DNA of 54,743 nucleotides from an uncultured Pseudomonadales bacterium (GCA_964494905.1 CAZBTU010000004.1:1-54743); one strand, 5' to 3'. Shown: positions 11,282 through 49,718, numbered from the stretch's first letter. Notes: generated from the sequence alone by a model not told the origin. Numbers and translations: made by a program.

Positions 11282-11300
11282 GCCTAAGAAGACCCTTGCT

Positions 11301-11309
11301 CCCCCCCCC
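11301..11309 (+). repeat. C9 homopolymer in the promoter spacer upstream of the DUF4349 gene
   Basis: Nine consecutive C between the -35-like TTGCTC (11296-11301) and the extended -10 TGcTACAAT (11318-11326). Confidence 0.9.
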
Positions 11310-11334
11310 TCTAAATCTGCTACAATTGGTTTAT

Positions 11335-12234
11335 ATGAACAAACGCACTCTCGTTCTTGTGGTTGCAGTTTTAGGGCTGTTGACTGTTTTGGCTTCAGGC
11401 AGAATGAACAAACTTCGTTTGGGAGAGGGCAGTGGCGTAGGGCTGATGATGAACCGTGATATGGTCACTTCTGTGGAGAAGGTGCCAGCTATTGAACCAG
11501 GAATGATGGGCAAAATCGCGTTCCCGTATCCGGGATCTGCTGGTGATGCTCTCCAAGTCGAGGACCGAGCACTTGAGTATAGTGCTTACCATGATGTGGT
11601 TGTCGATGATGTCCCAGAATATATGCAGCGAATGAGAGAGTACATCTTGAGCATCAATGGTAGAGTGTTGCACTGGAACCAAGGAAAACATTCACTGGAG
11701 CGATATCGCTATGGCACCATAACTGCAAAAGTTCCTGTGACTTCTTTTGAGGAAACAGTCAGTCGGGTTACTTCTGGGGTTGAGGAAGTGGTCTCAGAGA
11801 ACCAAAATATTGCGGATATAACAGGCGAGGTTGTGTACTCACAGGAACAAACTGAGAGCATCCGCGGTGAGATCGCTGTCCAAGAAGCAGCTCTGAGTGA
11901 AGCTACAACCGAAGTTGAACGAGTGCGGATTCGCAACCGATTGGACAGTTTACGCAAACAGCTTGAACAAGCAGAAAACCAGGGTGAGCAAATAGAAGAG
12001 CGCCAAGAATTCGCTACAATTTCCATCACCGTGGCTGATAGTGAGAGTTACTTCAATGGATCGTACAAACCCTCACTATTTGAAGAGTTGCGCCAAGCGA
12101 TGGAGTCGCTCCGTTACTCACTCAGTGGTGTGCTGGTAGTTATTATCTGGGTGGCAGTTTACAGTGTTATCTGGCTCCCACTTGTGCTAGGTGTTAATTA
12201 CGTAACCAAGTTTTTCAAGAGAAAAGCTAAGTAG
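11335..12234 (+). CDS. DUF4349-like protein (signal peptide, coiled coil, C-terminal TM anchor)
   Basis: 'MNKRTLVLVVAVLGLLTVLASG' signal, central coiled coil, C-terminal 'VLVVIIWVAVYSVIWLPLVLGV' TM. This is the architecture typical of DUF4349. I prefer the ATG at 11335 to the TTG at 11296. Confidence 0.6.
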   Translation: MNKRTLVLVVAVLGLLTVLASGRMNKLRLGEGSGVGLMMNRDMVTSVEKVPAIEPGMMGKIAFPYPGSAGDALQVEDRALEYSAYHDVVVDDVPEYMQRMREYILSINGRVLHWNQGKHSLERYRYGTITAKVPVTSFEETVSRVTSGVEEVVSENQNIADITGEVVYSQEQTESIRGEIAVQEAALSEATTEVERVRIRNRLDSLRKQLEQAENQGEQIEERQEFATISITVADSESYFNGSYKPSLFEELRQAMESLRYSLSGVLVVIIWVAVYSVIWLPLVLGVNYVTKFFKRKAK

Positions 12235-12249
12235 CCGGGAAGAACAATT

Positions 12250-15200
12250 ATGGGAGAAAGTGTATCCCCTGGTGAGAGGGAAACAGTTGATCACACTCAG
12301 GCCATTGCTCAGGAGCTTCGTGATAAGGGCGTCCAAGTTCTTGGGGACGAGGCTCGCCAAAATCCAGCGCAAGTACGGGAGTCGTTGCAGAAGGTTTCGG
12401 AACAACTTCCTGAAGTAGTAGTTGATGCTCAGCGTGCAGCAGAAAAGTTACAGCAAAATCCTGAGTATCAAGAACTGGGCAAGCAAGTGGACAATGTTGT
12501 TGCAGCTCTAGGCGAACACACTTCATCGGAACTTAACAAATTAGGGCAAGATCCAGCGTTCGTGCAGAAGTTGCGCGACGGCGATAAGGCAGCATGGGGT
12601 GAATTGGGTACCACAACCCAGCAACATGAGACAGAAGAGCATAAGGCGCAAACTGAGGCGTTAACTACTGCGGCAGCAAAATTCACAGAAGCCTTCAGGC
12701 AAAGAGATGACAAGCAACTTGAGGTGCTTGAGATCTGGGATGATCAAGAAAAGCAATTATATCTGGGTAAGGACAAAGGAAGTAAGCCAATTGGAGAAAA
12801 AGGGGCGTTAATTGATAAAGTGATTGAGCAAGCAGAAGCCATTGACGATCCTCAGAAGCGACAAGATTTTTTAGAAAAAAGAGCCAGAGGTAATATCAAT
12901 GATCAGATTGCTCGGGCTGAACGAAAGCTCACGACGCTTCAAACGCAACTATCTGAGCTACAAGCCAAAAAGGATAGATTTATTGCTCTCGCTCAGGCTG
13001 ATGGGCAAGCTGATAAAACTCAACTCGATCAGGAGAGAAAAGCGCTCACAGAAGAAATGGATCAGCTTCGAACAAATTTGGCTGATGCTCGAGATAACGG
13101 AATGTTGTCGAGTGGCAATGAGTACGGGGCGCGACACTTTTTGTCGAGAATTGACACGGCGATAGGAAATAATGATGGAGGGGTGCTCGGTCCTGTGTCC
13201 GCTGGTGAAATTTCGGGATTTTTTGATAAGTTAGAAAATGAAACTCAAGCGCTGACAGTAGCCGAGCTCAGAATACAACAAGCTCGGGAAAAAGTTGCTG
13301 AAGAAGCGACCAAAGCTGCTGCGCGAATGTCAGAACTGATTGCACTTGACCTTAGTGCCACTGGTGCTCAGGCAGAGCTTGATGACGTGGTTAAAAAAAT
13401 TACACAAACCCCTGAGGGTAAGATCTACACAGCTGAAATGACTGTGTTAGCAAACTTCCTTGCAGAAAAAGTTTCAAAAGCTAGAGAACAAATGTTGTCA
13501 GAAGAAGATAGTCGTGCTGATGCCATCAGTAGCAAGCTGATTGCAGAGTTGAGAGATACACTCGCTCGTTCTGAGCAGCCGGTTCAACAAGAAGAGCTGG
13601 TTCAGTTGTTGCAGCATACAATTGATCGCTTTAACAAGGTACTCGAGCGGGTAGAGCGACAGCAAGAGAAGAAAAAAGAGGGAACTGAGAAGCGTCCCAA
13701 TCCAAATGAGATTCGATCAGTAGTTCCACCTAGCTCTGAGTTGTCATCCCGACAAGGAGCGGCCGGTGGCGAGGCCCAGCCCCAAGCCGGGCGACAAGGT
13801 GAGGGCACCCCACTACCGGCGTCTCAATCAGAAAATCAGCAACAACCAGAGGCTACACAACAACCTGAATCTGTAGCCGAACTACCCCCCGACCAAACAA
13901 TAGACAAGCTCCAACAAGACTACACTCAGTTCAAGCAGTTGATTGATCAAGGTGCGTACCGCCAGCGTCACGACACCTTCACCCAATCTATGCTTGGTGT
14001 TAAGTCGAAACTTGATACACAGTTACAGTCAATTGATGCACAGTTACAAGCGCTCAAACCCGGTGAGGACAGAACGGGGCTTGCTGCGGAGCGTAGTCAA
14101 CTCATCCAGACACAAGAAAAGTTCCGAGAACTCCGAGATAAGGCAGCAGCGTATGACCAAGCACGTACAGGTGCAACTGCTGGGTTTGCCAATGCCCAGG
14201 AATTTGGACAAATTGACGCACTGCTGACCAAGTACGGACTATACTTCCAGGAGTTGCACAATAATGTTGCTATTGTTGATAGGACACTGAGACCGTGGGC
14301 TCAGTTGATTCAGCGTGAGGCCCAACGACTTGCTGCGCGCTGGAAGGAGAGCACGGATCCGAATGTTGTTCGATTCTTAGCTGATTATACAGAAGACCAG
14401 CTTCCCAACGGCTTTCATCGGGCTGTCAAGCAATCTGCAGACAAGCTGGGAAATGAAAAGAGTGTCGAACAGACCAGTGCGCAGCTAACCAGCGAGTTGG
14501 CTGGAGTTGGTTCATGGGATGAGTTAAAAGCCAAGCTCACTCAATACGCAGATGTGCCACTAGCAATCATGCACGGCAATGGTGTTTTGCAGATGAAGGC
14601 TGGAGAAATTATCACAATGTTAGAAAATGAGCGAGCTCAATATTCCTGCTCGGTTGATCAGTTAGGGACCCTTCAGCCCAGCAAGGAAGAGTACGAGCAA
14701 TCATTCCGGCTAGCATTTCCTTCATTACCTGACTTGGGTGCCAAAGCAGCGCAGCTGATTTCAGGCGAGAAGCGTGATGAATTATCGAGAATTTCTGGTC
14801 AGTTGTTGAGTCGGTCTTCGGCAAATCTCAAAGGATTTAGTGAGTTGTTGCGCTTGGGTGGTGATCATCTGCTGCTAGCGGGCGCTGACAAGCAGTTAAC
14901 CGATAGAGTTCGTTCATTCCGTGGACGTCAGGCACGCCTTTTTGGCAGAACATTCAACGTGCTTCCGAGCGTTAGTTTAGATCGATCGCGCTCAGGCGGA
15001 GGTTACTCGCTCTCTATTGGTTCGCGTGAGAAAAGTGGTGAACAGTCTGAACAGGCAGCACAGGCTAACCAGCTTGGTGTAAATGCCACTGAGTTAGCAG
15101 ACTACCTTGATACCTTGATGCAAACAAAAGAGCAATGGATGTGGAAGTCAAGGTTGGGAATACTGAGACAAAAAGTCACAAAAGAAGATGTCCTAAATAA

Positions 15201-15696
15201 GCTTGCCCAAGCAGGTGCCCCCAGAGAGAATCCGATCATACAGGCAGCTGCCGAGTATCTCCACGCGGAAGTGGTGGGTAGTCAGAAAAAAACAGAGAAC
15301 CAAGTAGTTTCTCCAGGAGTAATGCTCGGTATGGAAGGTCAGGGTAAACAGCGGACCGCAGTGGTTACACTCGAAACAGGAGCGCAAGCAAACATAGGGT
15401 ATGGAAGTGAGAGTCAGATCAGAACCAATAGAAGCATAGAATTTACTGACCTTGGTGCCAAGTACGCGACCCTTACACGTGGACCCGATGGTTCTGTTCG
15501 GTTTAGGCTGAATACGAACGCAGCTGCCTTTCATAATTTGAAGCCGGTACAGGGAGAAAATGGGGCGAGGGAGGTTATCTTGCCAGACAATCGGCCTGAT
15601 AATCCACACGTAATCCAAGTGGGTAAAGTCGCTCACACAATCAACGTTTCTGGCGGAACCGTGCGGTTGGCTACTAACTTTGGGCTACGAATGTAG
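12250..15696 (+). CDS. giant alpha-helical/coiled-coil protein, paralog A (1148 aa), unknown family
   Basis: Long uninterrupted ORF, Q/E/L/A-rich, no signal peptide or TM. N-terminal module shared with paralog B. Q/P-rich linker around 13740-13900. Confidence 0.7.
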   Translation: MGESVSPGERETVDHTQAIAQELRDKGVQVLGDEARQNPAQVRESLQKVSEQLPEVVVDAQRAAEKLQQNPEYQELGKQVDNVVAALGEHTSSELNKLGQDPAFVQKLRDGDKAAWGELGTTTQQHETEEHKAQTEALTTAAAKFTEAFRQRDDKQLEVLEIWDDQEKQLYLGKDKGSKPIGEKGALIDKVIEQAEAIDDPQKRQDFLEKRARGNINDQIARAERKLTTLQTQLSELQAKKDRFIALAQADGQADKTQLDQERKALTEEMDQLRTNLADARDNGMLSSGNEYGARHFLSRIDTAIGNNDGGVLGPVSAGEISGFFDKLENETQALTVAELRIQQAREKVAEEATKAAARMSELIALDLSATGAQAELDDVVKKITQTPEGKIYTAEMTVLANFLAEKVSKAREQMLSEEDSRADAISSKLIAELRDTLARSEQPVQQEELVQLLQHTIDRFNKVLERVERQQEKKKEGTEKRPNPNEIRSVVPPSSELSSRQGAAGGEAQPQAGRQGEGTPLPASQSENQQQPEATQQPESVAELPPDQTIDKLQQDYTQFKQLIDQGAYRQRHDTFTQSMLGVKSKLDTQLQSIDAQLQALKPGEDRTGLAAERSQLIQTQEKFRELRDKAAAYDQARTGATAGFANAQEFGQIDALLTKYGLYFQELHNNVAIVDRTLRPWAQLIQREAQRLAARWKESTDPNVVRFLADYTEDQLPNGFHRAVKQSADKLGNEKSVEQTSAQLTSELAGVGSWDELKAKLTQYADVPLAIMHGNGVLQMKAGEIITMLENERAQYSCSVDQLGTLQPSKEEYEQSFRLAFPSLPDLGAKAAQLISGEKRDELSRISGQLLSRSSANLKGFSELLRLGGDHLLLAGADKQLTDRVRSFRGRQARLFGRTFNVLPSVSLDRSRSGGGYSLSIGSREKSGEQSEQAAQANQLGVNATELADYLDTLMQTKEQWMWKSRLGILRQKVTKEDVLNKLAQAGAPRENPIIQAAAEYLHAEVVGSQKKTENQVVSPGVMLGMEGQGKQRTAVVTLETGAQANIGYGSESQIRTNRSIEFTDLGAKYATLTRGPDGSVRFRLNTNAAAFHNLKPVQGENGAREVILPDNRPDNPHVIQVGKVAHTINVSGGTVRLATNFGLRM

Positions 15697-15744
15697 TCTT
15701 TGGTGGTGCGCAGCGCTAAGTGAAAGCGTGAGAGTCTTGCATAT

Positions 15745-18700
15745 ATGTCAGAATCGAATCAATCACATACCAGTGCACCTCTAACCAGGGAACAACAACT
15801 GACTCATGATTTGCGCGATCAAGGCATGAGAGAGTTTCGCAGTACGGCTGAACAGGCTAGGCTCGATGCCCAGCCACTCGATTTGCACGTATTGAGAGAC
15901 CAGCTCGATTTGGTTAAACAACAACTGCCACAGATAATTCGAGAAGCACGCCAACATGTTCAAGATCGTCTGCAACAAAGTCATGCAGTACGGGAACTTC
16001 AACAGAAAATCACCGCACTACAGCAGGTTGTTCAGCAGCGACTAGCCCCTGATTCTCCGGTGCGCAAGATGCTTGAGGATCAACAGTTCCTGGATCAGCT
16101 CAGCATTGGCATACCTGGTTCATGGGATACTCTTGAGTCCGCTATTTTTGATTCAGAGCAGCTAAATCCATTTAATGCACGAGTCTCAAAACTCCAAACA
16201 GAACAACAGGAAGTTGCTACCGCGCATCGTTTGCAGCTTGATGCTTCTACCAACAAGCTGCGTGCGCAGCAGGTGATCGCCGAGGTTATGACTGAGTCAG
16301 CGTCCACCAATGTGAGAGCATTCATGACTGATACTGTGCAACGCGTCTCCAGTGAACCTGCCGATAATCAACAACAGCTGGCCGAGTCATTGTTGCGTGA
16401 TTTTGATAGTGGGCGGGTAGAAACTGCGACAGCAAATATTGCTACGGTAAAAAATGCTTTGGATCAGCTTGACGCCAAATCTATGGACATCGATAGGCTC
16501 ATCGCAGCAATTCCTGGCAATAATGATGTTGATAAGTTAAATCAGGCAGAAGCATCAGATCCCGTTATTCAAAGAGGTATTGAGTTAGCTAACCGCTTTC
16601 TGAGTCGGGTTGCTGAACCTCCACTCAACAGTGAATCTACTTCGATTGCGTACCTGGATGCTTTTTTTAAGCAACTGCCCCCCTTTGAGCAGGTCATGCA
16701 TCTGAGAGGAAATGTATTATCACTCTTGGATACTGTGTTTCAGAACGATTCGTTGTGGGATTCGGGAGAGAGAGAGATTGCAACTTTTCAGCAGATGTTT
16801 CAACAATTTACTGATTTACTTGGCGACAAAGCCGACTATCCAGCCAAATTACTCGGTACTGCGCAACTACACTACACTGCAAACAATCTCTGGAATGCAC
16901 TTATGAATGGTGACAGGCAAGGTGTTGCCGAAGTACGAGGTTTTTTTGATGCGGAGTTTAGCCAAACGGAATCATTGTATCAAGATTTTTTGAGGTATCA
17001 GAATCAAGAGCTCTCAAAAAGCCCGGTATTTCAAGAACACAAACAGACCCAGGCTGCGTATGAACAGCAGCTAGAAACTTTTTCTAAAGAGCTCGATGAT
17101 CTTTTGGTGCCGTCAGAGGCGGTTATCACTGGCGTCAAAGGACTCCACATCAAGCTTCGGGTTCTGCACCGTAGAAAAGATGAGCTGATATCGCGATTGC
17201 GGGACGCAACTGTCTTGACTAAGGATAGTCAAGTCTTGCAGGACGCCCGCAAGTACTTCATTAACTATTTAGCAAATGCCAGACAGGCAGCCACAGAGGC
17301 AGAAAGTGCTGTTGCAGCCTTCGCTGAACAGAGCAATCAAGACGAACGCATTGACATGTTGGTTGGCGACGTGCTGTTTATTGTGCGCAAACAGGCTCGG
17401 GAGAGAGAACTAGGAAGTGAGATTGTGACTGTCTCTACACAGATCGAGAACTCTCCAGAACAGGCGTTGCTTAAGGAGATTGAGCAGATCAGGAGTGCTG
17501 CCTTGCCAGACCAAGCACAACAAATCATTCAAGCAGTGCTCGCGCAGGTTGAGCAAAGTGGTTTTTCGAGTGCGTTGGCTGGAAGTGGCGATCAGCGCAT
17601 TGATGCATTTATTGGTAGGTTGGTTTCACAACTTCAGTCCGAAGTCATCCGCTCTCCAGGTATACTTGACGAGCAACAACTGACTGGTTTGCTTGACACT
17701 CAGATAGATCGTGTCGTGGATAGGATAGATGCTCACAGTCAGGAACAGCAGGTGAACGGACTGACTGAACAAGCAAGGCAAGCTGAAGTCAAAGTTCAAG
17801 CATTAGCGAGCAGATTCCCTGCTATTTCCAGAGAAAGAACGAGTCGTGACTACAGGGTGGCTTATGATAAGTGGACAGACGAAGTTGTTCTCAATCGACA
17901 ACTGTTGAATGATACACGCGAGGCGCTGCGTGTTATGTCGCTACAACAACTCACCCAACTTCAGAGCCAGCAACTGAGAGAAGCGCACTTGGTATTGGAT
18001 AGAGCAACAGAGACCCTCAATCTTGCAGTTGAACAAGCAACCATGTTTGATCAGAAACGACGCGATGTGGAAGAGCGGCTACAGCACACAAATAATCTTG
18101 ACGAACTCGATACGTTTGTAAGTAAAGCATATGATTTTTTTGCTGATTTGACTGGTTCTAAAAAGGCGGCAGATCGCATGAAAGACTACATTGTCCGGGT
18201 CAAGGTTGCTACCGTAATGTACGGTCCACAATGGGCCAAAGAGCCGTATATTGCTAGACATTTGATTGGTGTGCGTGATAAAGAACAAACCTTCCCAGAA
18301 TTTTTCTATGACGCACTCGTACGGTCTGCTGGTATAGAGGGGCAGCAGACAAGCTCTAAGGCTGAACAAGTTATCAAAAACTTAGAGCTGACGCCAGCTC
18401 CGAACTTGGTTTGGTTAGCGGAACACATACAAAGTGAAGGTGCGTTCAAGTATCCAACCTTTACATTCAAAGTTGGGACAGAAGACAGAGGCCATGAAAT
18501 GACTTTTAGCCAGCTGGCTGATTATTTAAAGGAAATTCAAAAAACAGAGTATGCGATCAATGCTGAACAAGAAATATCACCTAGCGAGGGCGAGTTTTTG
18601 CAGACTCTGACTCGCAAATTGCCGCCTAGGAGAGGACTCATTTCCTATGTTCAAAAACTCGCAGCGGAGGAACCGAGAGCTCTAGCGGCAAAAGACTTAA

Positions 18701-18981
18701 TTTCTGGCAATCTCTCGTCGTTGCAGCAGCTTGATACATTACTACGCGAGGCAGGAAGAGGCGTGAAGTTTGTCGCGCGAGACTCGGCTGTCGTTGACGC
18801 TCTGTCACTATCTCGATCATTGAGTGATTTCATGGTTGGTAAAAAGCAAATTCCGCTTGGGGTTTTTGATAGGCTAACTGCGCACCGGCGTGCGGTTGCA
18901 GCAGAAAAGTATTTGATTACGCAACAGAGCTTCCCTGATCACCCGATTACAACGCAAATTGCTCGACTCCTGACTGAGTAA
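15745..18981 (+). CDS. giant alpha-helical protein, paralog B (1078 aa), unknown family
   Basis: N-terminus homologous to paralog A ('LRD' at residues 23-25 in both). C-terminal ~270 aa homologous to paralog C. Confidence 0.7.
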   Translation: MSESNQSHTSAPLTREQQLTHDLRDQGMREFRSTAEQARLDAQPLDLHVLRDQLDLVKQQLPQIIREARQHVQDRLQQSHAVRELQQKITALQQVVQQRLAPDSPVRKMLEDQQFLDQLSIGIPGSWDTLESAIFDSEQLNPFNARVSKLQTEQQEVATAHRLQLDASTNKLRAQQVIAEVMTESASTNVRAFMTDTVQRVSSEPADNQQQLAESLLRDFDSGRVETATANIATVKNALDQLDAKSMDIDRLIAAIPGNNDVDKLNQAEASDPVIQRGIELANRFLSRVAEPPLNSESTSIAYLDAFFKQLPPFEQVMHLRGNVLSLLDTVFQNDSLWDSGEREIATFQQMFQQFTDLLGDKADYPAKLLGTAQLHYTANNLWNALMNGDRQGVAEVRGFFDAEFSQTESLYQDFLRYQNQELSKSPVFQEHKQTQAAYEQQLETFSKELDDLLVPSEAVITGVKGLHIKLRVLHRRKDELISRLRDATVLTKDSQVLQDARKYFINYLANARQAATEAESAVAAFAEQSNQDERIDMLVGDVLFIVRKQARERELGSEIVTVSTQIENSPEQALLKEIEQIRSAALPDQAQQIIQAVLAQVEQSGFSSALAGSGDQRIDAFIGRLVSQLQSEVIRSPGILDEQQLTGLLDTQIDRVVDRIDAHSQEQQVNGLTEQARQAEVKVQALASRFPAISRERTSRDYRVAYDKWTDEVVLNRQLLNDTREALRVMSLQQLTQLQSQQLREAHLVLDRATETLNLAVEQATMFDQKRRDVEERLQHTNNLDELDTFVSKAYDFFADLTGSKKAADRMKDYIVRVKVATVMYGPQWAKEPYIARHLIGVRDKEQTFPEFFYDALVRSAGIEGQQTSSKAEQVIKNLELTPAPNLVWLAEHIQSEGAFKYPTFTFKVGTEDRGHEMTFSQLADYLKEIQKTEYAINAEQEISPSEGEFLQTLTRKLPPRRGLISYVQKLAAEEPRALAAKDLISGNLSSLQQLDTLLREAGRGVKFVARDSAVVDALSLSRSLSDFMVGKKQIPLGVFDRLTAHRRAVAAEKYLITQQSFPDHPITTQIARLLTE

Positions 18982-19058
18982 TTGCGAAGGCAACTTCTTA
19001 AAAGAGAGTTTTGACGCTGAATCGTAAATCTGTCTCAGGTTTGCTATAGTGGAGTGGT

Positions 19059-20477
19059 ATGCATGAGCAGTCAAAAGGTCCCCAAGTCACTCAACAAAAC
19101 ATTGTGACGCGTGGCAGTGTTCAAGACGTAACGCAAGCGTATGTAGACCCAACACTTGCAAGAGTTCCCCTTGAACATTTTAAAACGGCAGTGAATAATC
19201 AAGAAAAATTTATTACTACTGCGTACGCTAAGCTAGAAAAAACCCGTAGTCGATTAAACAACACAAGAGGATTGGTCACAAAGCTAACTAACCAACTGGT
19301 GACGCTGCAAACTACTTGGTCAGGACAAGAATATCAAAAAAAAGCAGCAGCGTTCACAGATCAGTGTATTGGAGCTAAAAAAATGCTAGAAGGACTACAG
19401 CAAGAGGTGGAAGAGACTGCACAGATTGAGCGTGAGGAGTCCCTAACTCAAGATGGAACGACGAATGTTAAGCATACATTCGATCAATTGGTTAAACAAT
19501 TTAATGGTGTGGTGAATCTTCACCTCGAAACTGGAAATCTTCGCCCAAAATTTGAGTCAGCACTTAAGTCCGCTGACACACTCTCGGCATTAAGTGCAGT
19601 AGTGGCAGAACACTCCCACTACTTACTCCAATATAGTGAAAGCGATAACTACATTTCTCGTTTACAGCACCTTATAACTCAATTGCAATCTGATGCAGTT
19701 ACCTATGGAATCCAGTGGCCAAATGCACGTGCTGCTCAGCTGGTGAGGAGATTGGGAAGACATGCATATCCGGAGTTTTTCCATGAGCAACTTATGAAAG
19801 CTGCGCGCAATGAGGGAAAAAAGTATGAGAAAACCTGCGAAGCACTTTTATTTCTTAAGGAATTACCAGAATCTAAGCCTCCATCAGTGACACAGTTGAT
19901 TGAGCACTTCACCCAGTACGAGCACTTTGCTTTTCGGGTGCGAACCCAAGAAGGGCCAGAAGTAGTAACTAGTATGGCAAAGATTAGGGAGTCGCTCATA
20001 GAGGTTCGCAGAGGCTTACGATTCCGGATAGATGAATCAGGTAATTATCGACCGAACAATTTGCAGCTGGTGCAAGAGCTGAGGCAAGCTGGTGTTCCCA
20101 ATACCTTTCACTTAGCAGAAATTGCTGCGCGCGCACTCGACTCGACGACCAACCGATCTCAATATCGTGACGAGCTCCGGTCTGCTCAATTCCAGAGTTT
20201 GACGGAGTTGCAAGTCTTGTTGCGGCTGTCTGGAAGGTACATTCAGTTTACAGATCAGAGTGGAATTGCGAGCGCTTCTCAACTCGGTTCGGTACTTTCC
20301 GAATTAACAGCCAAATCAGATTGGCAAACAGTCAGGGGTCGTTTCGGCTTTGGACAGCAGAAAGCAGGACTAAAAGATATTCGAAATTTGTTAGCTGCCC
20401 GAGGTATGCCTGTGCGCAACAAGGTCGTGGAGCAAGCAGCGAACTTGTTATACAAAGAAATTAGAGCTTCTCATTGA
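19059..20477 (+). CDS. alpha-helical protein, paralog C (472 aa), unknown family
   Basis: Its 'YGIQWPNARAAQLVRRLG…YPEFFHEQLMKAARNEG…FAFRVRTQEG' aligns with paralog B 'YGPQWAKEPYIARHLIG…FPEFFYDALVRSAGIEG…FTFKVGTEDRG'. Confidence 0.7.
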   Translation: MHEQSKGPQVTQQNIVTRGSVQDVTQAYVDPTLARVPLEHFKTAVNNQEKFITTAYAKLEKTRSRLNNTRGLVTKLTNQLVTLQTTWSGQEYQKKAAAFTDQCIGAKKMLEGLQQEVEETAQIEREESLTQDGTTNVKHTFDQLVKQFNGVVNLHLETGNLRPKFESALKSADTLSALSAVVAEHSHYLLQYSESDNYISRLQHLITQLQSDAVTYGIQWPNARAAQLVRRLGRHAYPEFFHEQLMKAARNEGKKYEKTCEALLFLKELPESKPPSVTQLIEHFTQYEHFAFRVRTQEGPEVVTSMAKIRESLIEVRRGLRFRIDESGNYRPNNLQLVQELRQAGVPNTFHLAEIAARALDSTTNRSQYRDELRSAQFQSLTELQVLLRLSGRYIQFTDQSGIASASQLGSVLSELTAKSDWQTVRGRFGFGQQKAGLKDIRNLLAARGMPVRNKVVEQAANLLYKEIRASH

Positions 20478-20535
20478 TCTTTTTTGGGTTTATAGTAGAA
20501 TCGAGGTTTCCACATTATTATTTTGGGTGTGTTCT

Positions 20536-21495
20536 ATGGCAGCAAAACCATTGCTATCAGTTCGTTCGTTGACGAAAACCTATCCCGCTCGCGCAGGAGA
20601 GGCTCGGCCATTTACTGCCGTCAAAGATGTTTCTTTTTCGTTGGCTCCAGGAGAAATATTGGGGTTACTTGGTCCAAATGGTGCCGGTAAATCAACAACC
20701 ATTTCAATGTTGCTCGGAAGTTTAACTCCTACCAGTGGTTCGATTAGTTACTTTGGACAGGACTTCAGCACTCACAGGGCAGATATTTTGCAGCATGTCA
20801 CGTTTGCCAGCACCTACATCAAGTTGCCTTGGCGCTTAAGCGTGGCGGAAAACTTGCAAGTTTACGGATATTTGTACGGTTTGAGTCGACAACAGTTTCT
20901 GAAACGTATGGAAAAATTTCTCAAGTTTTTTGGCGTTTGGTGTGAACGGCATAAGACTATGAATGAGCTTTCCGCTGGACAAATCACGCGTGTGATGTTA
21001 GCAAAAGCCTTCATACCGCATCCGAAGATAATTTTGCTTGACGAACCCACTGCATCGCTTGATCCCGATATCGCTCACGAGGTCCGAGAGTTCGTCAAGA
21101 TACAACAAAAGGAGTACGGTAGTAGCATTCTCTACACTTCACACAATATGGATGAAGTTGCCGATGTTTGTGACAGAGTACTGTTCTTAAAGCAGGGGAA
21201 AATTATTGCTGCCGATACACCAGATAACTTAGCAAGATCGGTTTCGCATGCCCGGATGGTACTTACTGTCAAAGATGGTATGAAGCGTATTGAACGCTTC
21301 TCAACTGAAGCGGGCATTCCCGTGAGTGTGGCAGGCAGAGAGGTGAGTATTACAATTGATGAGCAACGGGTTGCAGGCTTTTTAGCTCGGCTGGCTGAAG
21401 CAGGCATTTCCTACTCCCAAATCACCATCGATAAACCGACTTTGGAAGACTACTTCTTACAGATGAGCAGAGAAGATGCTGCGGAGGATGTATGA
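20536..21495 (+). CDS. ABC transporter ATP-binding protein
   Basis: Walker A 'GPNGAGKST', signature 'LSAGQ', Walker B 'ILLDEPT', H-loop 'YTSHNM'. A GTG at 20527 is also a possible start. Confidence 0.85.
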   Translation: MAAKPLLSVRSLTKTYPARAGEARPFTAVKDVSFSLAPGEILGLLGPNGAGKSTTISMLLGSLTPTSGSISYFGQDFSTHRADILQHVTFASTYIKLPWRLSVAENLQVYGYLYGLSRQQFLKRMEKFLKFFGVWCERHKTMNELSAGQITRVMLAKAFIPHPKIILLDEPTASLDPDIAHEVREFVKIQQKEYGSSILYTSHNMDEVADVCDRVLFLKQGKIIAADTPDNLARSVSHARMVLTVKDGMKRIERFSTEAGIPVSVAGREVSITIDEQRVAGFLARLAEAGISYSQITIDKPTLEDYFLQMSREDAAEDV

Positions 21496-22280
21496 AACTG
21501 AGAAAACACATGGTTTGGGCGCTCTTCTTGCGCCATTTATACCCTCTTCAGCGCGACTTTGATTTGTTGTCTGACATGATTTATTGGCCAATTATCGATA
21601 CTTTGCTGTGGGGCGTGACAGGTCAGTGGTTAGCGCAGAGTTCAGGGGGAGCACGATTGGTTGTGTCTATCCTGTCTGGATTATTGTTGTGGAACGTGAT
21701 TTGGCGCTCTCAAGCAGAGGTAGCTAGGAATCTGATGGATGAAATTTGGAACAACAACTTAGTTAATCTGTTTTCGACGCCACTGACTATTACTGAGTGG
21801 GTGGTGTCAGTCATTTTGCTTTCAATTGGCAAAACAGTTGCGACTGTTTCGATGTTGAGCCCGATTATGTACTTGTTGTACAGAATAAATGTGCTTGAAA
21901 TAGGTCCTTGGTTGGGTCTATTTTTCATCGGTGCGACAATGACTGGTTGGTGGGTAGGTTTCTTGGCTGCTGGAATTGTGCTCAGAAAAGGGCCAAAAGT
22001 CCAGACCGTTATCTGGACATTGCCAGGAATTTTACTGCCGTTCAGCGCGATCTATTTTCCTATTACTCAATTGCCACTCTGGGCACGATGGATAAGTTAT
22101 TTAGTTCCAACTTCATATATTTTTGAAACTATGAGATCGGTATTAAATGGCATGCCAGTAGACTTGACACTCTTACTGATTAGCTTCTTGTTGAATAGCA
22201 TTTATCTTTTCTTCAGTGTTTGGTTTTTTGTTCGAAGTTTCAAGTATAGTCTCAACCTTGGGCTCGGACGGTTCAACTAA
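21492..22280 (+). CDS. ABC-2 type transporter permease
   Basis: 4-nt overlap with the ATPase gene (ATGA). Six hydrophobic segments. Size and placement are typical of ABC-2 permeases. Confidence 0.75.
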   Translation: MKLRKHMVWALFLRHLYPLQRDFDLLSDMIYWPIIDTLLWGVTGQWLAQSSGGARLVVSILSGLLLWNVIWRSQAEVARNLMDEIWNNNLVNLFSTPLTITEWVVSVILLSIGKTVATVSMLSPIMYLLYRINVLEIGPWLGLFFIGATMTGWWVGFLAAGIVLRKGPKVQTVIWTLPGILLPFSAIYFPITQLPLWARWISYLVPTSYIFETMRSVLNGMPVDLTLLLISFLLNSIYLFFSVWFFVRSFKYSLNLGLGRFN

Positions 22281-22335
22281 GAAGTCGGTCTGCCTGGTGA
22301 TTAGCATGTCCCATGTTTTATGACATACTAACTGT

Positions 22336-23187
22336 GTGAAAATAGATGATTTAGTTACTTCTGATGTGGGTTTCAAGGCAGCTTCTTCAGATTTGCCAGT
22401 TTTGAGGGAGTTGAAGTTTTCTTGGAAGAACCCACCGCTTTGGCGGCCAGAAAATAGTCTCGTTGTGTCTGAACATCAGTATTCCGATGGGCATGAGAGT
22501 GGGGAATCACTTTTTACAAGGCTAGATAAGCCAATGAACAGTTATGTTAAGTCGTTATGCACAAAGTACTTTGGTAAAAAAGGAAAAAGCTTTCTCAGGC
22601 ATTCCTTATTAGTGCGTTTTGCTTATCCGTCGGACCAGGAAGAGCTGGCAGCGAAAGACAGCTTGATTGATGTTGCTTTGAGGCCAGTTATTGCTGCTCA
22701 GACATCACAGTTACTCGAAAATCAGATAAAAGTAACCAAAAATCACGGCGAGTGGGAGTTTGTTTTGCTCACGCTGATTGGCAAGGCTGTATGGAATATC
22801 ATAGAGTCAACAGTTGTTTTAAACAAACTTCCAATGGATGGAGTACAGCCGGTTTTGGGTGCTCAACTACTGTTAGAACGAGGGCTCACAGAAGAACAAA
22901 TCATTAAACGATTCAAAATATTTCTTGACAGGTGGAATGAGGAATTTACGATGCGTAATCGCTCCCGTAGAGGTGGACTGCACAGTGATGCTGTGTGTCC
23001 GTATCGGTCAATGCCAATATGGAAGGCAGAGGGCTTTGCTGATGTGGTCGCAACGGCTCTTAAGCTGAGAGCTGGCACTGGGCTTTTGCCAACAGAAAAG
23101 GCTGCCTGGTCACACTTGTCAAAAACGGCACGGGTGTTGGTCGAAGAAGTAATCAGAGAGTTGCTTCCGGTTAATCAGAGGGAGTAG
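22336..23187 (+). CDS. hypothetical protein (283 aa), GTG start
   Basis: ORF only, no recognisable motif. Confidence 0.5.
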   Translation: MKIDDLVTSDVGFKAASSDLPVLRELKFSWKNPPLWRPENSLVVSEHQYSDGHESGESLFTRLDKPMNSYVKSLCTKYFGKKGKSFLRHSLLVRFAYPSDQEELAAKDSLIDVALRPVIAAQTSQLLENQIKVTKNHGEWEFVLLTLIGKAVWNIIESTVVLNKLPMDGVQPVLGAQLLLERGLTEEQIIKRFKIFLDRWNEEFTMRNRSRRGGLHSDAVCPYRSMPIWKAEGFADVVATALKLRAGTGLLPTEKAAWSHLSKTARVLVEEVIRELLPVNQRE

Positions 23188-23457
23188 CTATTCTTTCGAT
23201 TCAGTAACAGCCGGTCTTCTTATTTTTTTTGCTTCCATCCCTTTTCCCACAAGACCAATGATTGCTTGCCAGAGAAATTTGGGAATGAACTTGGGTCTCA
23301 GGCCCTCAACCATTCTGTCAGCCTTTTTCTGGGCTGCTGTGAGTACTTCCTGATGTGCAAATGAAATCTGTTGCACAAACTGCGCCAAATGTTCTTCTCG
23401 GACTTCTTGACGGGGTTGTTCGTGAGTATACGTGCGTTTTTCTTGTTCTAGTGACAT
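23188..23457 (-). CDS. small hypothetical protein (89 aa)
   Basis: ORF only. Charged N-terminal half and a hydrophobic C-terminal segment 'FLWQAIIGLVGKG'. Confidence 0.4.
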   Translation of the reverse strand: MSLEQEKRTYTHEQPRQEVREEHLAQFVQQISFAHQEVLTAAQKKADRMVEGLRPKFIPKFLWQAIIGLVGKGMEAKKIRRPAVTESKE

Positions 23458-23601
23458 TCTTGCCTTCCTACCTTAAGAATACGCTCGATATAGTATAGCA
23501 CTGAGTGATACATAGTTTGCTATTTCAGAAAAAAATGGTACATTATGGAATGGACGCTGCTAGTGCAGCACACTCTAGTTTGGAGTAGAAAGGCAATCAT
23601 T

Positions 23602-24012
23602 ATGTCACAAGGACCAGAACAAAAACATGATACCGACCATGTAGTGTCGCTAACAGAACGAGAAACTGTCCCAATGAATCTCAGGGAGAATTTAGCTGAG
23701 CTACAAGGCATGATTGGTGTCGACCAGACAGAAGTCAATAAATTAGTGAAAAGCTTAGATGGAGCAGGGTACTCATGGCTGGTTGTCTATCAAGAAAATA
23801 ACAAAAGGTTGAGACTCGATGATACGGTTGAGTTTTGTAAATCAAGTGTTCTTGATATGGGAATTGGTTTACATGAGGGACAGCAGTACAAAGGTGGGGT
23901 GTTGAAGAAAACTACCAGTTTTGCCCAAGAAATTCCAGCACCAAGCAATTACTATGATGATGAACCAAGCTACTTACTGAGTAAAGCAATGACTAGTGCG
24001 TACCAGAAATAG
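23602..24012 (+). CDS. hypothetical protein, tandem paralog 1 (start uncertain; the ORF opens at 23545)
   Basis: Homologous over its length to the next gene. Acidic Tyr-rich C-terminal tail 'NYYDDEPSY'. Confidence 0.55.
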   Translation: MSQGPEQKHDTDHVVSLTERETVPMNLRENLAELQGMIGVDQTEVNKLVKSLDGAGYSWLVVYQENNKRLRLDDTVEFCKSSVLDMGIGLHEGQQYKGGVLKKTTSFAQEIPAPSNYYDDEPSYLLSKAMTSAYQK

Positions 24013-24111
24013 TAAACGCTTGGTTGTCTGTACAAATGGATTCAGACAATGATACAGTAGTCAGTAGTACGAACATCGAGTTGTAGTTCGTACGAAAAAT
24101 CAAGGAGAAAA

Positions 24112-24540
24112 ATGTCAGAACAAGAAAAGCAAGGTCAAGGTGAAGCATTTAGCAGTGTTAACATGATGCCAGACAAACCTCAGAAAAGCCCTGAGCGACA
24201 ACTGAACAGTACCGACTTGAGGCAATTGATTCAGGATTTAAGATTGGAAATTGGAGTTGATGAAGCAGCCACTCAAAAGCTTGTTGATCGACTAAAAAAG
24301 AATGGGTATGTCTGGATGGTAGTTGATGCTCAGAATAATCTTCGCATTGACACTGACCTCACGATTGCTTTCTATGAGAAAGGATTGATGGAATTAGGCT
24401 TAGGCTTTTTAGAAAATCAACTATTTATGCATGGCAAGCTCAAGGCAACAGCGAGCTTTGTACCGCAAAAACCACTTCCCCCATACCACTATGGTGATGA
24501 TGATGATGGTTACACGCCAACTACTGGTTTATATCAGTAA
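24112..24540 (+). CDS. hypothetical protein, tandem paralog 2 (142 aa)
   Basis: AAGGAG SD. 'IGVDEAATQKLVDRLKKNGYVWMVV' aligns with 'IGVDQTEVNKLVKSLDGAGYSWLVV' in paralog 1. Tail 'YHYGDDDDGY'. Confidence 0.65.
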   Translation: MSEQEKQGQGEAFSSVNMMPDKPQKSPERQLNSTDLRQLIQDLRLEIGVDEAATQKLVDRLKKNGYVWMVVDAQNNLRIDTDLTIAFYEKGLMELGLGFLENQLFMHGKLKATASFVPQKPLPPYHYGDDDDGYTPTTGLYQ

Positions 24541-24575
24541 CTTAGTAAGTTGTGGTAATCAACTAATTGAAAAGC

Positions 24576-24605
24576 AAAAAAGTCCCGGTTTTTACCGGGA
24601 CTTTT
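24576..24605. terminator. bidirectional rho-independent terminator
   Basis: AAAAAA-GTCCCGGT-TTTT-ACCGGGAC-TTTT between convergent genes. Confidence 0.75.
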
Positions 24606-24632
24606 AGTAGTACAGGTTGTCAACAGCTGGGA

Positions 24633-25133
24633 CTAGAAAACTGTTTCCTTGGCTGCTATCGCCAGCGCATCAGGGATGTCTCGTACCCGGACCGTGCCAT
24701 CAGGGTGGCCGCGGACGATAAACTCATACGACATGTAATAAGTCGTGCGCTGAATCGAGACGAGGATAGGCTCTCCGAGCATTTCCCACTCAAACGTGAT
24801 TCCGCCATAGCGATTACTGGCATTTTTCAGGTGCCAGGTGGTTATACTACCCTCATTCCACAAACCCGTTGCTATGAAGGGTTCGATATACATTGCTTCA
24901 ATCTTGATGGGAAGGCCTGATTCGGCAATTTTTTCTTTCATTGCTAGAAGTCGGGCTTCGAAGAAGGTTTTGCTAACTGGGCTAAGCGGTGTTTGATCAT
25001 AGCCATCAAACAACAACTTTCCGTCCTTGATGGACCATGTGAGGACATCGAAGGCACTGTTGCCGTTAGATCGAGACCACTTGATTTTTGGTTTCTTCAA
25101 ATTTTTTACGAACGATTTTAGCCACGCAAACAT
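24633..25133 (-). CDS. hypothetical protein (166 aa)
   Basis: ORF ending at the bidirectional terminator. No motif recognised. Confidence 0.6.
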   Translation of the reverse strand: MFAWLKSFVKNLKKPKIKWSRSNGNSAFDVLTWSIKDGKLLFDGYDQTPLSPVSKTFFEARLLAMKEKIAESGLPIKIEAMYIEPFIATGLWNEGSITTWHLKNASNRYGGITFEWEMLGEPILVSIQRTTYYMSYEFIVRGHPDGTVRVRDIPDALAIAAKETVF

Positions 25134-25371
25134 CAGTCACTCCTTCGCCTGCCTCTGGAGGATAAAGGGATATGAAGCAGGGCAACAGAGAGAGCAATAC
25201 TCGCCCCATTGCCATGCTTCATGGTGACAACCTGTTAAAGAACCCTGTGCAGAAGCAAAAGCAGTATTTACACTACACAGTTTGTTTGAATTATAGCAAT
25301 AACTATAAAGATATGAAACTGAGCAATAAGGGTTTATAATAACTTCTTCGTAAGTGATACCTTGACGTACT

Positions 25372-26382
25372 ATGCAAAAAGAAAACAATAGTTTGCCAGT
25401 CACACTGTTCTCACAACGAGTAAGTGAAGCACAGCTCCAGTGGAAGGAAAAAAAAGGCACTTTTACAGAATTCTCTCAAGCCCTTGATGTCCCAACCAAA
25501 CTAACCAGACTTAATTATGCAAGCATCTTGAACAGTCTTCCCACATACATACCAGAAACTTTGAAGAGAGAACTCCAAGAGAAGCCTTTGCCATTGGTAG
25601 GGTTGAGTGTGTTTGAGGACAAGCGCTCTCATGAAGATCTTGGCTTTCCGGTAGCGATAGTTGTCCCGGATGAGTTGGTTTGCGATGGGGAGCAATACGC
25701 TTGGCGGTTGGGTATTCAGATTCTCAATGAAATTGCAACCGATACATTAGCACTCGATATTATGAAAGAAATGGGAGCACACTATCAACCAATTCGCTTA
25801 GCTCACGAGACAAGAGATCTTGGATTAGGATCGATACAGAAAGTTATTCGCAGGTTGCGTAAACAATTTGCAGAGTCGTACACAACCTTTTTGCAAGAAT
25901 TGGTTGTTGCTATGCTTAGTGGTGACATGCAAGCGGTAGATGCTCACTGTCAAGCGGTTGGTTATCACAGCATAAACCAGTTAGCTGTCGATATCGGCAA
26001 AAATGCACGTTACATCCCAGATATTTTATTGAAACTGAGGAAAAATCCCAATGTATTTACCAGGGCAATTTGGGGTTCAATATCTGGTGGACAAGTCAAT
26101 ATGAGACTTCCCGGTGTTATCAGTATTCATGCAGCCTCCCGGTTGCTTGGAAGTGTCAATCTCTTGATAGGTTCAGTTAATCTGCAAGTTGCACAAGAGG
26201 CATCACAAAGTGATGAGGTATTGAGCGCGGTCTACAACTACGCTATGTTTTTGTTTTGCGTCTTAGTTGGATTGCAGATGGTTGCGGGAACACCAGGCAT
26301 TTATGTGCACGAGGTCAGCCATTACTTGAGTCATACAGAAAATCATTTCGGTCTGATACCGATTAGTTATGACTTGGCCTAA
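25372..26382 (+). CDS. hypothetical protein with C-terminal HExxH motif (336 aa)
   Basis: 'IYVHEVSHYLSH' about 20 aa from the C-terminus. The N-terminal 'KGTFTEFSQALDVPTKLTRLNY' is weakly HTH-like. Confidence 0.6.
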   Translation: MQKENNSLPVTLFSQRVSEAQLQWKEKKGTFTEFSQALDVPTKLTRLNYASILNSLPTYIPETLKRELQEKPLPLVGLSVFEDKRSHEDLGFPVAIVVPDELVCDGEQYAWRLGIQILNEIATDTLALDIMKEMGAHYQPIRLAHETRDLGLGSIQKVIRRLRKQFAESYTTFLQELVVAMLSGDMQAVDAHCQAVGYHSINQLAVDIGKNARYIPDILLKLRKNPNVFTRAIWGSISGGQVNMRLPGVISIHAASRLLGSVNLLIGSVNLQVAQEASQSDEVLSAVYNYAMFLFCVLVGLQMVAGTPGIYVHEVSHYLSHTENHFGLIPISYDLA

Positions 26383-26411
26383 AGCCAATACATGCGTCGT
26401 ACAATAAAAGT

Positions 26412-27203
26412 ATGCAGAATAGTCGCGAAGTTTATAAAGGAGACAAAGGTACATCGTTCAAGGATTCGATAGATGCGGCGTATGCGCGTTTTACACGGCT
26501 AGAGTTTGGTTCAAGTAAGGAAAAGGACACAACAGAGTTTCTAAGGCACATTGCAATGACTGCTGATATGAATTATGGATATGCAGCAGTTTCCGAAAGC
26601 TTTGTTGATGCCAATAAAACCTCAGTCATCTTTTTACCTGTCGATTTGAGGGGATCACCTGGGCTGCAACCCATTGTGTGGGCAGGCGGCAGAGTTGAAG
26701 ATACTGACGAGAAAAAAATGTTGAGGGCTTCATTTATCTTTGAGAAGTTCGATACGACATTGCTCCTCAATCTAACACAGCTAGAAAAAGTTTTGCGTTG
26801 GTGTGATAAGGTCATAAATGAGGAAAATTATTACTTGATACGAGCGAAGTACTATGATGCTGTTTTTACTTTTTTTTCAAACTTAGAGTTATATAAACTC
26901 ACCTGTCGTGACGATGCGGTAATTTATAGGTATGCTGCTTCTGATGAAGAGGAAAATATTCCTCCAGAAAAGAGAGATAAATATGGTGATTGGGTTGCAA
27001 GGAGCCCTGAAGCAGTTCTACGAGTTGCAGAATATAAGGTTGCGACTCATTGGTTTAGAAAAGATGCCGTATCGGGTATGCAAAATGGCTATTTAGGCAA
27101 GTTGCATGTAAGAAGAAGTACTATCGGAAACGCAAAAAAGACGCACTACATAGCTCTTGATACAGCAGAAATACAAGCATTGGTTTTGATCAAGAAGGAC
27201 TGA
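26412..27203 (+). CDS. hypothetical protein (263 aa)
   Basis: ORF only. TACAAT lies 6 nt upstream of the ATG. Confidence 0.6.
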   Translation: MQNSREVYKGDKGTSFKDSIDAAYARFTRLEFGSSKEKDTTEFLRHIAMTADMNYGYAAVSESFVDANKTSVIFLPVDLRGSPGLQPIVWAGGRVEDTDEKKMLRASFIFEKFDTTLLLNLTQLEKVLRWCDKVINEENYYLIRAKYYDAVFTFFSNLELYKLTCRDDAVIYRYAASDEEENIPPEKRDKYGDWVARSPEAVLRVAEYKVATHWFRKDAVSGMQNGYLGKLHVRRSTIGNAKKTHYIALDTAEIQALVLIKKD

Positions 27204-27215
27204 TAGATAGTGTTG

Positions 27216-27647
27216 TGGAGATGAGGAGGTGCGACCTCCTGTCCGCAATGAGACTGTTCCAACATCTACAGACATAGTGCGTTTTTGATATTGCCACGGT
27301 GGTAAACGGACAAACCGGTTCGTGAGCAACCCCTGTCTAAAGGCTTATGAAAGTCCGGACAGGAGCGGACAATCGGTCACACTGACTGTGTTTCCACCCA
27401 CCCGTTAGCGCCAGTGAGACTGAACGAGTGAATGCCGTTATGCAAACAGCTGAGCTGTTTGATATTGGGTGTTAAAGTTTGAACCACCAACAGTGTCTAG
27501 CAACTGTGAAGCTGCATCTGCGACGGCGTCTTTAACACGTTTGGCTGAAAGATTGCCAATTGTGTTTTTGACCCTGTTTAACGTCTTTTTGGTCAAAGAC
27601 GGTCTGCAGTTGGTAACGAGCACATCACGTCAATGCAATACATCCCC
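27216..27647 (-). ncRNA. ssrA: transfer-messenger RNA (tmRNA)
   Basis: Read on the minus strand. The 5' GGGGAUG pairs with the 3' CAUCUCC, including a G3-U70 wobble, followed by discriminator A. T-arm AGGAG-GUCGCAC-CUCCU is preceded by GCGGAC, as in E. coli '…CGGAC GCGGG UUCAACU CCCGC CAGCUCC A'. The 5' 'GCAUUGACGUGAU' resembles 'GGAUUCGACGGGAU'. An internal reading frame ends …NFNTQYQTAQLFA-UAA inside a hairpin. Confidence 0.82.
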
Positions 27648-49446: not shown

Positions 49447-49570
49447 CAGCGCATTCGCGCTGCATTAGCCTGGCTCACTTCGTTCGCCATGCGGCAGGAT
49501 CATGCGTTCTGCTAAATATCTACCCAACTCATACTGCCCGTTAATTCCAGCTACGCTGGATTACCGGTCA

Positions 49571-49589
49571 GTGCGGAAGGGGAGGGATT
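49571..49589 (-). repeat. 19-bp direct copy of the tRNA-Ser(UGA) 3' end
   Basis: GTGCGGAAGGGGAGGGATT is identical to 49717-49735. Confidence 0.9.
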
Positions 49590-49718
49590 TACTGCTCGCA
49601 CATTTTATTCGCTCCCAGTATAACCAGGCTCTCTGCCATTGGCAGATCGCTTGGTTGACTTCTCATCCGAATCTGTAACGTCTCCACATTTCTAACTTCG
49701 TTAGAATGTAGAGCCGTG

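Follow-up and report, generated by a model that had tools for sequence, protein, structure and literature searches.

What kind of proteins are encoded by a tandem array of three large genes that resembles no recognised family, where did the array come from, and what might it do? The array lies in a 54,743-nt stretch of DNA (GCA_964494905.1 CAZBTU010000004.1:1-54743; hereafter the window) filed under an uncultured Pseudomonadales bacterium, of which it occupies 8.2 of 54.7 kb. It consists of three open reading frames (ORFs), which we call A, B and C:

12250-15696, + strand, gene A, ORF of 1148 aa
15745-18981, + strand, gene B, ORF of 1078 aa
19059-20477, + strand, gene C, ORF of 472 aa

The account that we favour, with a probability of about 0.9, is that A, B and C form a real, young and fast-evolving orphan family, without a detectable relative by sequence or fold and confined to one narrow clade of Microgenomates/Woesebacteria-like bacteria of the candidate phyla radiation (CPR). 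Its building block would be a core of ~470 aa in which three long helices are followed by a helical region and then by an alpha/beta part that contains beta-hairpins. C would be this core alone; A and B would carry the core behind an acidic, Q-rich helical extension that opens with an N-module of ~130 aa, and A would further have a disordered linker in front of the core, an insertion that interrupts it and a basic, beta-rich tail behind it. The family would have been inserted between a DUF4349 gene and a pair of ABC-2 transporter genes, duplicated there in tandem and kept by purifying selection.

Paralogy and architecture of A, B and C

An initial annotation, made from the sequence alone, had delimited the three ORFs and read them as paralogs. 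ORF calling reproduced their coordinates, lengths, strand and spacing (48 nt between A and B, 77 nt between B and C), and the motifs quoted in support of paralogy were found, including LRD at residues 23-25 of both A and B. Composition-adjusted BLASTP connected the first 130 residues of A and B (E=3e-5), the C-terminal parts of B and C (E=8e-15, 24% identity over 281 aa) and A with C (E=5e-6). Smith-Waterman scores lay far beyond those of 300 composition-preserving shuffles, both for the N-module of A and B (z=9.9) and for the C-terminal module (z=24.5 for B-C, 11.0 for A-C and 9.8 for A-B). Moreover, a profile of the C-module made without A finds A with E=3.9e-16. Because BLASTP, the shuffle z-scores and the profile match all point the same way, the similarity is, judged by these alignments, homology rather than shared composition, and A, B and C are true paralogs.

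The C-terminal module common to the three proteins comprises ~330 aa and sits within the ~470-aa core unit, which is equivalent to the whole of C. A had been said to carry a weaker copy of this module. The copy is there, and since the profile matches it in two pieces (aa 623-873 and 944-1011), it is a full copy interrupted by a disordered insertion of ~70 residues (about aa 874-943) rather than a weaker one. The five cores that we compared are about equally diverged, with 15-23% identity and a star-like tree, so that the duplications are old relative to the clade; the paralogs differ from one another as much as C differs from its ortholog in a sister species. Expansion in situ, as first proposed, is retained, as an old expansion.

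Three parts of A can be placed on the window:

12250-12639, + strand, N-module of A (aa 1-130), common to B and weakly to the large protein of the sister locus L004
13882-15300, + strand, core unit of A (aa 545-1017), with the same architecture as the whole of C in models and hidden Markov model (HMM) matches
15301-15693, + strand, A-specific C-terminal tail (aa 1018-1148), predicted to be beta-rich, with an isoelectric point (pI) of about 10

Between its N-module and its core, A is helical to aa 476 and then runs through a disordered P/Q/E-rich linker (aa 477-543). Nothing in B, C or the L004 proteins corresponds to the tail, which also matched no ORF of the loci fetched for comparison. B has an N-module (aa 1-130), an acidic helical region and a core unit that extends from about aa 699 to its end; a full-length HMM of the small protein matches B at aa 699-1033 (E=6.7e-23). 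The N-terminal extensions of A and B are acidic, helical and Q-rich, about 500-700 aa long and of pI about 4.9, and Cys is nearly missing from both proteins (one in A, none in B). The N-module of the L004 large protein gave shuffle z-scores of 6.2 against A and 4.6 against B.

Structure prediction supports this division. The AlphaFold2 model of C, made with a six-sequence family alignment as input, has a mean predicted local distance difference test score (pLDDT) of 75. It starts disordered (aa 1-45) and continues with three long helices, each of some 40 residues (aa 46-171); a further helical stretch (aa 175-286) leads to an alpha/beta part (aa 291-472) that includes two beta-hairpins and has pLDDT values mostly above 85, and above 90 over much of aa 310-420. 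For A the mean pLDDT is 57, with values of 80-90 over aa 545-880, a disordered insertion placed by the model at about aa 881-940, low confidence in the helical N-terminal half (aa 1-476) and values below 50 for the strands of the tail. The first three core helices are modelled as an antiparallel bundle in both proteins (C aa 46-171, A aa 547-648).

The proteins had also been described as coiled-coil in appearance, and here the helical part of the description stood while the canonical coiled coil did not. Only 0-15% of 42-residue windows in A, B and C exceed the shuffle 99th percentile for 3.5-residue periodicity, versus 71% in a tropomyosin control, and the AlphaFold2 models show helices of about 20-68 residues with loops in between; A, B and C are better described as bundles of helices than as canonical coiled coils. 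The stated lack of a signal peptide, transmembrane (TM) segment or enzymatic motif agrees with our hydropathy and domain scans, in which no TM segment or signal peptide was found in A, B or C (maximum Kyte-Doolittle hydropathy over 19 residues at most 1.06). Furthermore, 11 residues are invariant across seven core sequences, every one of them W, P, A, L or G, with no invariant acidic, basic (Arg/Lys), His, Cys or Ser among them; this makes an enzyme unlikely, and the three proteins are probably not enzymes.

Profile and structure searches, which the initial annotation had proposed as a check on its statement that no family could be recognised, returned no confident match to any characterised family. 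The best Pfam matches of A, B and C reached 12-15 bits against cut-offs of 22-33, and all NCBIfam matches fell far under their cut-offs (for example Rad50 with E=0.004 and 15 bits against a cut-off of 700). PHROGs gave a single match to a helical stretch of a small-terminase family (E=5.7e-4), and PADLOC only weak matches of the N-terminal helices of C to LmuB (E=4e-5) and JetC (8.5e-5). No match to PDB sequences appeared in single-protein or profile searches, and Foldseek, run with the A and C models against the PDB and with C against BFVD, gave nothing better than E=0.04. Long-helix matches in BFVD, for example to tape-measure proteins, were likewise non-significant and were dropped as a viral link.

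Several known types nevertheless resemble the array proteins in part. The Foldseek matches to PDB entries that recurred, all non-significant, were to Sso1/Sso2, the syntaxin Habc domain, designed three-helix bundles and spectrin repeats, and the likeness to spectrin/plakin repeats and syntaxin Habc lies in the modelled bundle of the first three core helices. With E-values of 0.17 or worse, query-normalised TM-scores of at most 0.24 and no sequence similarity, this is a generic fold resemblance and no evidence of membership; unlike spectrin or plakin proteins, the core shows no tandem repetition of the bundle, and its alpha/beta half is without counterpart there. SMC-like defence proteins (Lamassu LmuB, Wadjet JetC) are approached through weak matches, apparently in the long helical stretches of their models, which cover only about 125-155 aa of helix and are scored similarly by the DUF4349 protein next to the array. 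A, B and C, unlike LmuB and JetC, have no ATPase heads, Walker motifs or hinge, and no SMC_N, AAA_23 or ABC_tran domain of the SMC/Rad50/MukB type was found in them by a scan that does find such domains in the ABC ATPase next door. The Rad50, LmuB and JetC matches most likely reflect helical composition.

Other large helical or exported proteins were considered in the same way. Sustained heptads of the kind seen in coiled-coil rods (M-protein, tropomyosin, the intermediate-filament-like crescentin and FilP) were not found, and A, B and C lack the signal peptide and LPXTG motif of M-protein-type wall anchors. They gave no HemolysinCabind or RTX match in Pfam that would mark a type I secretion substrate, and the transporter beside the array consists of a separate ATPase and an ABC2_membrane permease, not of the ABC_membrane domain of a fused HlyB-type exporter. 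Nor do they resemble type VII substrates (WXG100/LXG): WXG100 reached 14.7 bits against a cut-off of 44.85, and an ESAT-6-like chain in the PDB gave E=0.18.

Distribution, insertion and divergence of the array

The window is a piece of the chromosome of a CPR/Patescibacteria bacterium, with RNase J, FtsK, transfer-messenger RNA (tmRNA), tRNA, Dus and glycosyltransferase genes, and its closest named relative is a Candidatus Woesebacteria metagenome-assembled genome (MAG), GCA_018062735.1 (~90% identical; hereafter the close strain). Many MAG records among the related loci (L004-L009 and other FtsK-anchored loci) are titled 'uncultured Pseudomonadales' or 'Gammaproteobacteria' although their FtsK and synteny are clearly those of Patescibacteria/Microgenomates, and these taxonomic labels appear to be wrong.

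In databases the family has a narrow distribution. Searched by word index among 5.8 billion proteins, B retrieved only itself, and C only itself and one Woesebacteria protein of 90% identity (P0003, the ortholog in the close strain). A retrieved nothing; an exact look-up places it in the collection, clustered with a 420-aa fragment from GCA_018062735.1. When 1.84 billion representatives were searched exhaustively by HMMER with the C-module profile, three proteins came up, two from GCA_018062735.1 and one (P0005) from the sister species. The C-module was found neither in 185,579 species genomes nor in JGI metagenomes or IMG/VR (the metagenome contig scan used a three-sequence alignment), and INPHARED phages and PLSDB plasmids gave no match by tblastn. 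We therefore rejected a phage, plasmid or viral origin. The array is seen only in the window strain, the close strain and the sister species, as expected of the lineage-specific family first suggested; orphan families are common in CPR genomes.

The insertion point is defined by the genes on either side, which are neighbours and not members of the family:

11296-12234, + strand, DUF4349 protein (Pfam PF14257, E=3e-25)
20527-21495, + strand, ABC ATPase (Pfam)
21492-22280, + strand, ABC-2 permease (Pfam)

The DUF4349 protein has a hydrophobic segment at its N-terminus and, at its C-terminus, a TM anchor (hydropathy peak at aa 279); its gene stops 15 nt short of A. C ends 49 nt before the ABC ATPase if the latter starts at GTG, or 58 nt before its first ATG, and the ATPase and permease genes overlap by 4 nt; the best NCBIfam match of the ATPase is the drrA subfamily, under that family's cut-off. 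FtsK lies ~1 kb upstream of the array on the same strand, with the alpha, motor and gamma domains typical of a DNA translocase, and its synteny with RNase J is phylum-wide. No + strand terminator was predicted in the intergenic gaps, and the corresponding gaps of L004 are only 6-28 nt, so the long operon envisaged at first is plausible: the array may be co-transcribed with its neighbours.

Anchoring on FtsK yielded 80 related loci and anchoring on the ABC-2 permease 59 further ones. The nearest sister locus, L004 (FtsK 80% identical to that of the window), has the order FtsK, DUF4349 (51%), a 1085-aa protein, a 482-aa protein, ABC ATPase (73%) and ABC-2 permease (72%). Its 482-aa protein (P0005) is the ortholog of C, with 21% identity (phmmer 3e-26), and its 1085-aa protein, undetectable by BLAST, yet contains the core (hmmsearch 1.8e-11; hhalign probability 96%). 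L004 is a two-gene version of the array whose DNA cannot be aligned with that of the window, the module being kept at the protein level. The close strain (L001, L145) has all three genes; its B ortholog is a fragment, 85.7% identical, and its A ortholog is also a fragment.

Elsewhere the flanking genes occur without the array. None of the 59 ABC-2-anchored loci contains the C-module. In L096 and L136 DUF4349 is followed directly by the ABC-2 pair, L090-L092 have one small ORF or a short gap between them, and in L100 and L102 FtsK is followed directly by the ABC-2 pair; L096 runs on into the same PRT-TPR-Dus backbone as the window. Because relatives show DUF4349 and the ABC-2 pair adjacent without the array, the array is, by this synteny, an insertion between ancestrally adjacent genes, made after the split from the L005-L009 group and before that between the window lineage and L004. 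By the same comparison, the functional link to the DUF4349 protein and the exporter that the initial annotation had drawn from their proximity is not supported, and a link to the exporter through conserved synteny was rejected: the ABC pair is ancestral and is present without the array. Nor is protein export known for ABC-2 systems whose ATPase is separate from a 6-TM permease. A membrane-anchored DUF4349 protein and a DrrA-like ABC ATPase/ABC-2 permease are encoded side by side in several Microgenomates (L096, L136, L090-L092); they may work together as a conserved unit, and this would offer a clue to what DUF4349 does.

Composition gives no sign of a foreign source, since the GC content at third codon positions (GC3) and the codon usage of the array are native and typical of the window. 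Synonymous divergence (dS) and the ratio of non-synonymous to synonymous divergence (dN/dS), computed by the Nei-Gojobori method between the window and the close strain, are:

o260, RNase J, FtsK: dS 0.08-0.13, dN/dS 0.03-0.05
DUF4349: dS 0.40, dN/dS 0.04
A: dS 0.41, dN/dS 0.086
B: dS 0.50, dN/dS 0.16
C: dS 0.32, dN/dS 0.165
ABC-2 permease: dS 0.27, dN/dS 0 (dN = 0)
Downstream orphans: dS 0.25-0.64, dN/dS 0.11-0.14

Purifying selection acts on the array, though in a form 2-5 times more relaxed than on its housekeeping neighbours, and A, B and C are real genes.

The region of dS raised 3-5-fold over RNase J and FtsK runs from DUF4349 to about 25.3 kb. Within it and at its end, two tracts (20.4-21.6 kb and 25.4-26.5 kb), to which the ABC ATPase (dS 0.02) and o336 belong, are ~100% identical between strains. 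An excess of dS specific to the array, with a recombination boundary at the end of C, was considered and withdrawn, as the permease, DUF4349 and the downstream orphans are equally diverged (L143, L145). The tracts themselves (20430-21586 and 25361-26535) are 99-100% identical to GCA_018062735.1 (L001, L143) amid surroundings of 78-95%, which suggests recent homologous recombination between co-existing strains; a further locus (L144, run SRR12762285) is 100% identical to window positions 19950-23423. Positions 19430-19529 form a patch of 67% identity. The window strain or a close relative of it is present in runs SRR11088468 and SRR12762285.

The slot between DUF4349 and the tmRNA

From DUF4349 to the 3' end of the tmRNA gene (12235-27647; the gene itself occupies 27213-27647 on the minus strand), the window holds ~15 kb comprising the array, the ABC pair and several orphan ORFs. 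This slot is variable: in L006 and L007 it measures 1-2 kb and has one gene, and in L012 it is occupied by an RND-pump-like pair. The two L012 ORFs (1130 aa and 508 aa), which by eye resemble an RND pump and a membrane-fusion-like protein, were tried as distant homologs of the array proteins and rejected (hhalign probability 0.1%). No integrase domain occurs in the ORFs between 22.3 and 27.2 kb, and no att-like direct repeat of the tmRNA 3' end was found within 11-28 kb, so we rejected an integrase-mobilised tmRNA island; no phage or defence genes were found in the slot. Variation driven by a diversity-generating retroelement was likewise rejected, there being no template/variable repeat pair (no repeat of at least 35 nt involves the array anywhere in the window) and no reverse-transcriptase domain among the scanned window ORFs.

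Other features of this region and of the window were seen along the way. The tmRNA genes of the clade (window, L006, L007, L008) are found by the Rfam model at 73-95 bits and were missed by ARAGORN, which found that of L012. Downstream of the ABC-2 pair, orphans o155 (23545-24012, + strand) and o142 (24112-24540, + strand) are apparent paralogs by eye, with the common pattern IGVD..KLV..L...GY.W.VV..NN.R..D.T..F....G.G...Q...G.LK...SF...P.P..Y.DD; both are kept in the close strain (L143), and they look like a second tandem duplicate pair of lineage-specific genes. Further along, two adjacent ORFs of 500 and 528 aa (43479-46557, - strand), near a glycosyltransferase cluster at 34.9-38.5 kb, encode polytopic membrane proteins without a Pfam match; they were considered as extra paralogs of the array and rejected, having no similarity to it. 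Finally, the 3' part of a tRNA-Ser(tga) gene is partially duplicated over 45 nt at a distance of 145 nt from the gene (49545-49589 versus 49690-49734; area 49459-49734), and a 50-nt inverted repeat (84% complementary; 53824-53873) brackets a 4.3-kb segment between two tRNA-Ser genes. The duplicate and the repeat may be remnants of an integration or inversion event.

Possible roles of the proteins

Since A, B and C combine a lack of export signals with a modular helical build and a conserved core, we favour a role as cytoplasmic scaffold or adaptor. The proteins would stay in the cytoplasm and would be non-catalytic; the conserved core would mediate a common interaction, either among the three or with one shared partner, and the acidic extensions, which are divergent, would add length or offer binding surfaces that vary. 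The whole account, with this mechanism included, is tentative, and we put it somewhat below even odds. The nearest analogy may be the lineage-specific cytoskeletal proteins of other reduced-genome bacteria, such as HMW1, HMW2 and P200 of the Mycoplasma pneumoniae attachment organelle, which are large, acidic, mostly helical and fast-evolving proteins of a narrow clade, without signal peptide and with low-complexity proline/acidic linkers. This is an analogy and not a family assignment. No relationship in sequence or structure was looked for or found; HMW2 is a strongly heptad-periodic coiled coil whereas A, B and C are weakly periodic, and they carry neither an EAGR box nor any other defining motif of these proteins.

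Several observations weigh against a cytoplasmic scaffold. Housekeeping scaffolds are usually better conserved than C, which is only 21% identical between the window and L004 where FtsK is 80% identical, and the synonymous divergence of the slot is 3-5 times that of nearby core genes; such fast divergence within a high-dS slot is more typical of conflict or host-interaction genes. The weak heptad periodicity does not indicate a filament-forming coiled-coil rod. The AlphaFold models rest on an alignment of six sequences, with low confidence for the N-terminal half and tail of A, and proteins that lack a classical signal peptide may still leave the cell by a non-classical route.

Non-classical export is indeed the basis of another explanation, in which the proteins act on the surface or on the host cell of a presumed episymbiont, the core serving as an anchoring or translocation module and the extensions making contact with the host. 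The divergence of C from L004 (21% identity versus 51-80% for its neighbours), the position of the array in a strain-variable, mosaic region and the short gaps between it and the genes of the membrane-anchored DUF4349 protein on one side and the ABC system on the other are all in keeping with this, as is the acidic, nearly Cys-free make-up of A and B, which is typical of many secreted bacterial proteins. We nevertheless consider it unlikely. Neither a signal peptide nor a TM segment, a lipobox or any known anchor domain is present in the proteins, the window ORFs that were scanned include no recognised secretion-system gene, and the ABC-2 pair, besides being ancestral and occurring without the array, is of a small-molecule/polymer exporter type closest to DrrA. 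Moreover, the conserved C-terminal helix of A's core is internal, with 130 aa after it, which argues against a signal at a free C-terminus, and overall dN/dS values of 0.09-0.17 give no sign of gene-wide positive selection. Quite improbable, in our estimation, is that the array is the cargo of a variable island beside the tmRNA and forms a defence or anti-defence system, with no enzymatic component that can be recognised, for conflicts with phages or other mobile elements. The 3' ends of tmRNA genes are classic sites of island integration, the ~15-kb slot corresponds to a single gene in L006 and L007, and narrow distribution with fast evolution would suit such a role. However, an integrase is missing, the tmRNA 3' end is not repeated in att-like fashion, searches of phages, plasmids and viruses gave no relatives, the LmuB/JetC matches from PADLOC are weak and seemingly compositional, and composition and codon usage are native. 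Nor do the proteins show a nuclease, ATPase or protease domain, any other effector domain, or polar residues that are conserved, and the array lies between two ancestral genes rather than beside the tmRNA.

A role in nucleic-acid binding or chromosome organisation, for example as partners of FtsK with the beta-hairpins and helices of the core as binding modules, is suggested by the nearby FtsK gene on the same strand, by the basic charge of C (pI 9.3) and of the A tail (pI 10) and by the helix and beta-hairpin elements of the core. We hold it to be very improbable: the charge is not conserved (pI 5.6 in the L004 ortholog of C, 6-7 in the cores of A and B), no Arg or Lys is conserved across all cores, Foldseek found no winged-helix or other DNA-binding fold, and the FtsK-RNase J synteny is independent of the array. 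That the ORFs are non-functional, as decaying remnants or as chance or selfish reading frames, could be argued from their having no homologs outside the lineage and no assignable function, but it is scarcely credible and conflicts with what selection and conservation show. Frames of 3.4, 3.2 and 1.4 kb stay open in a genome of 45-47% GC, dN/dS between strains is 0.09-0.17, the protein module is kept in a species whose DNA is unalignable, codon usage is typical, and the core is confidently predicted by modelling to be a folded unit.

The cytoplasmic scaffold or adaptor therefore remains the reading that we prefer, and the structural, surface or host-interaction apparatus of the initial annotation remains speculation. 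A bolder version, which we regard as distinctly unlikely, would make the array a new lineage-specific structure of a CPR episymbiont, either a cytoplasmic scaffold under the host-attachment site or a set of non-classically delivered host-interaction proteins, with a new alpha/beta-plus-helical-bundle fold and a divergence that tracks host or phage specificity.

By itself, the array settles no open question, and what is new is the protein family only, whose activity may prove ordinary. Nevertheless, much of the coding capacity of the small CPR/Patescibacteria genomes consists of proteins of unknown function, which are probably key to how these bacteria attach to hosts and live off them. Here, one family takes 8.2 of 54.7 kb and is held by purifying selection, yet has diverged almost beyond recognition between sister species. 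As a clearly delimited orphan family whose core unit is defined and whose insertion point can be dated, the array is a target for structural genomics and metaproteomics, and its role, if found, would show how new large structural proteins arise and serve in reduced genomes.

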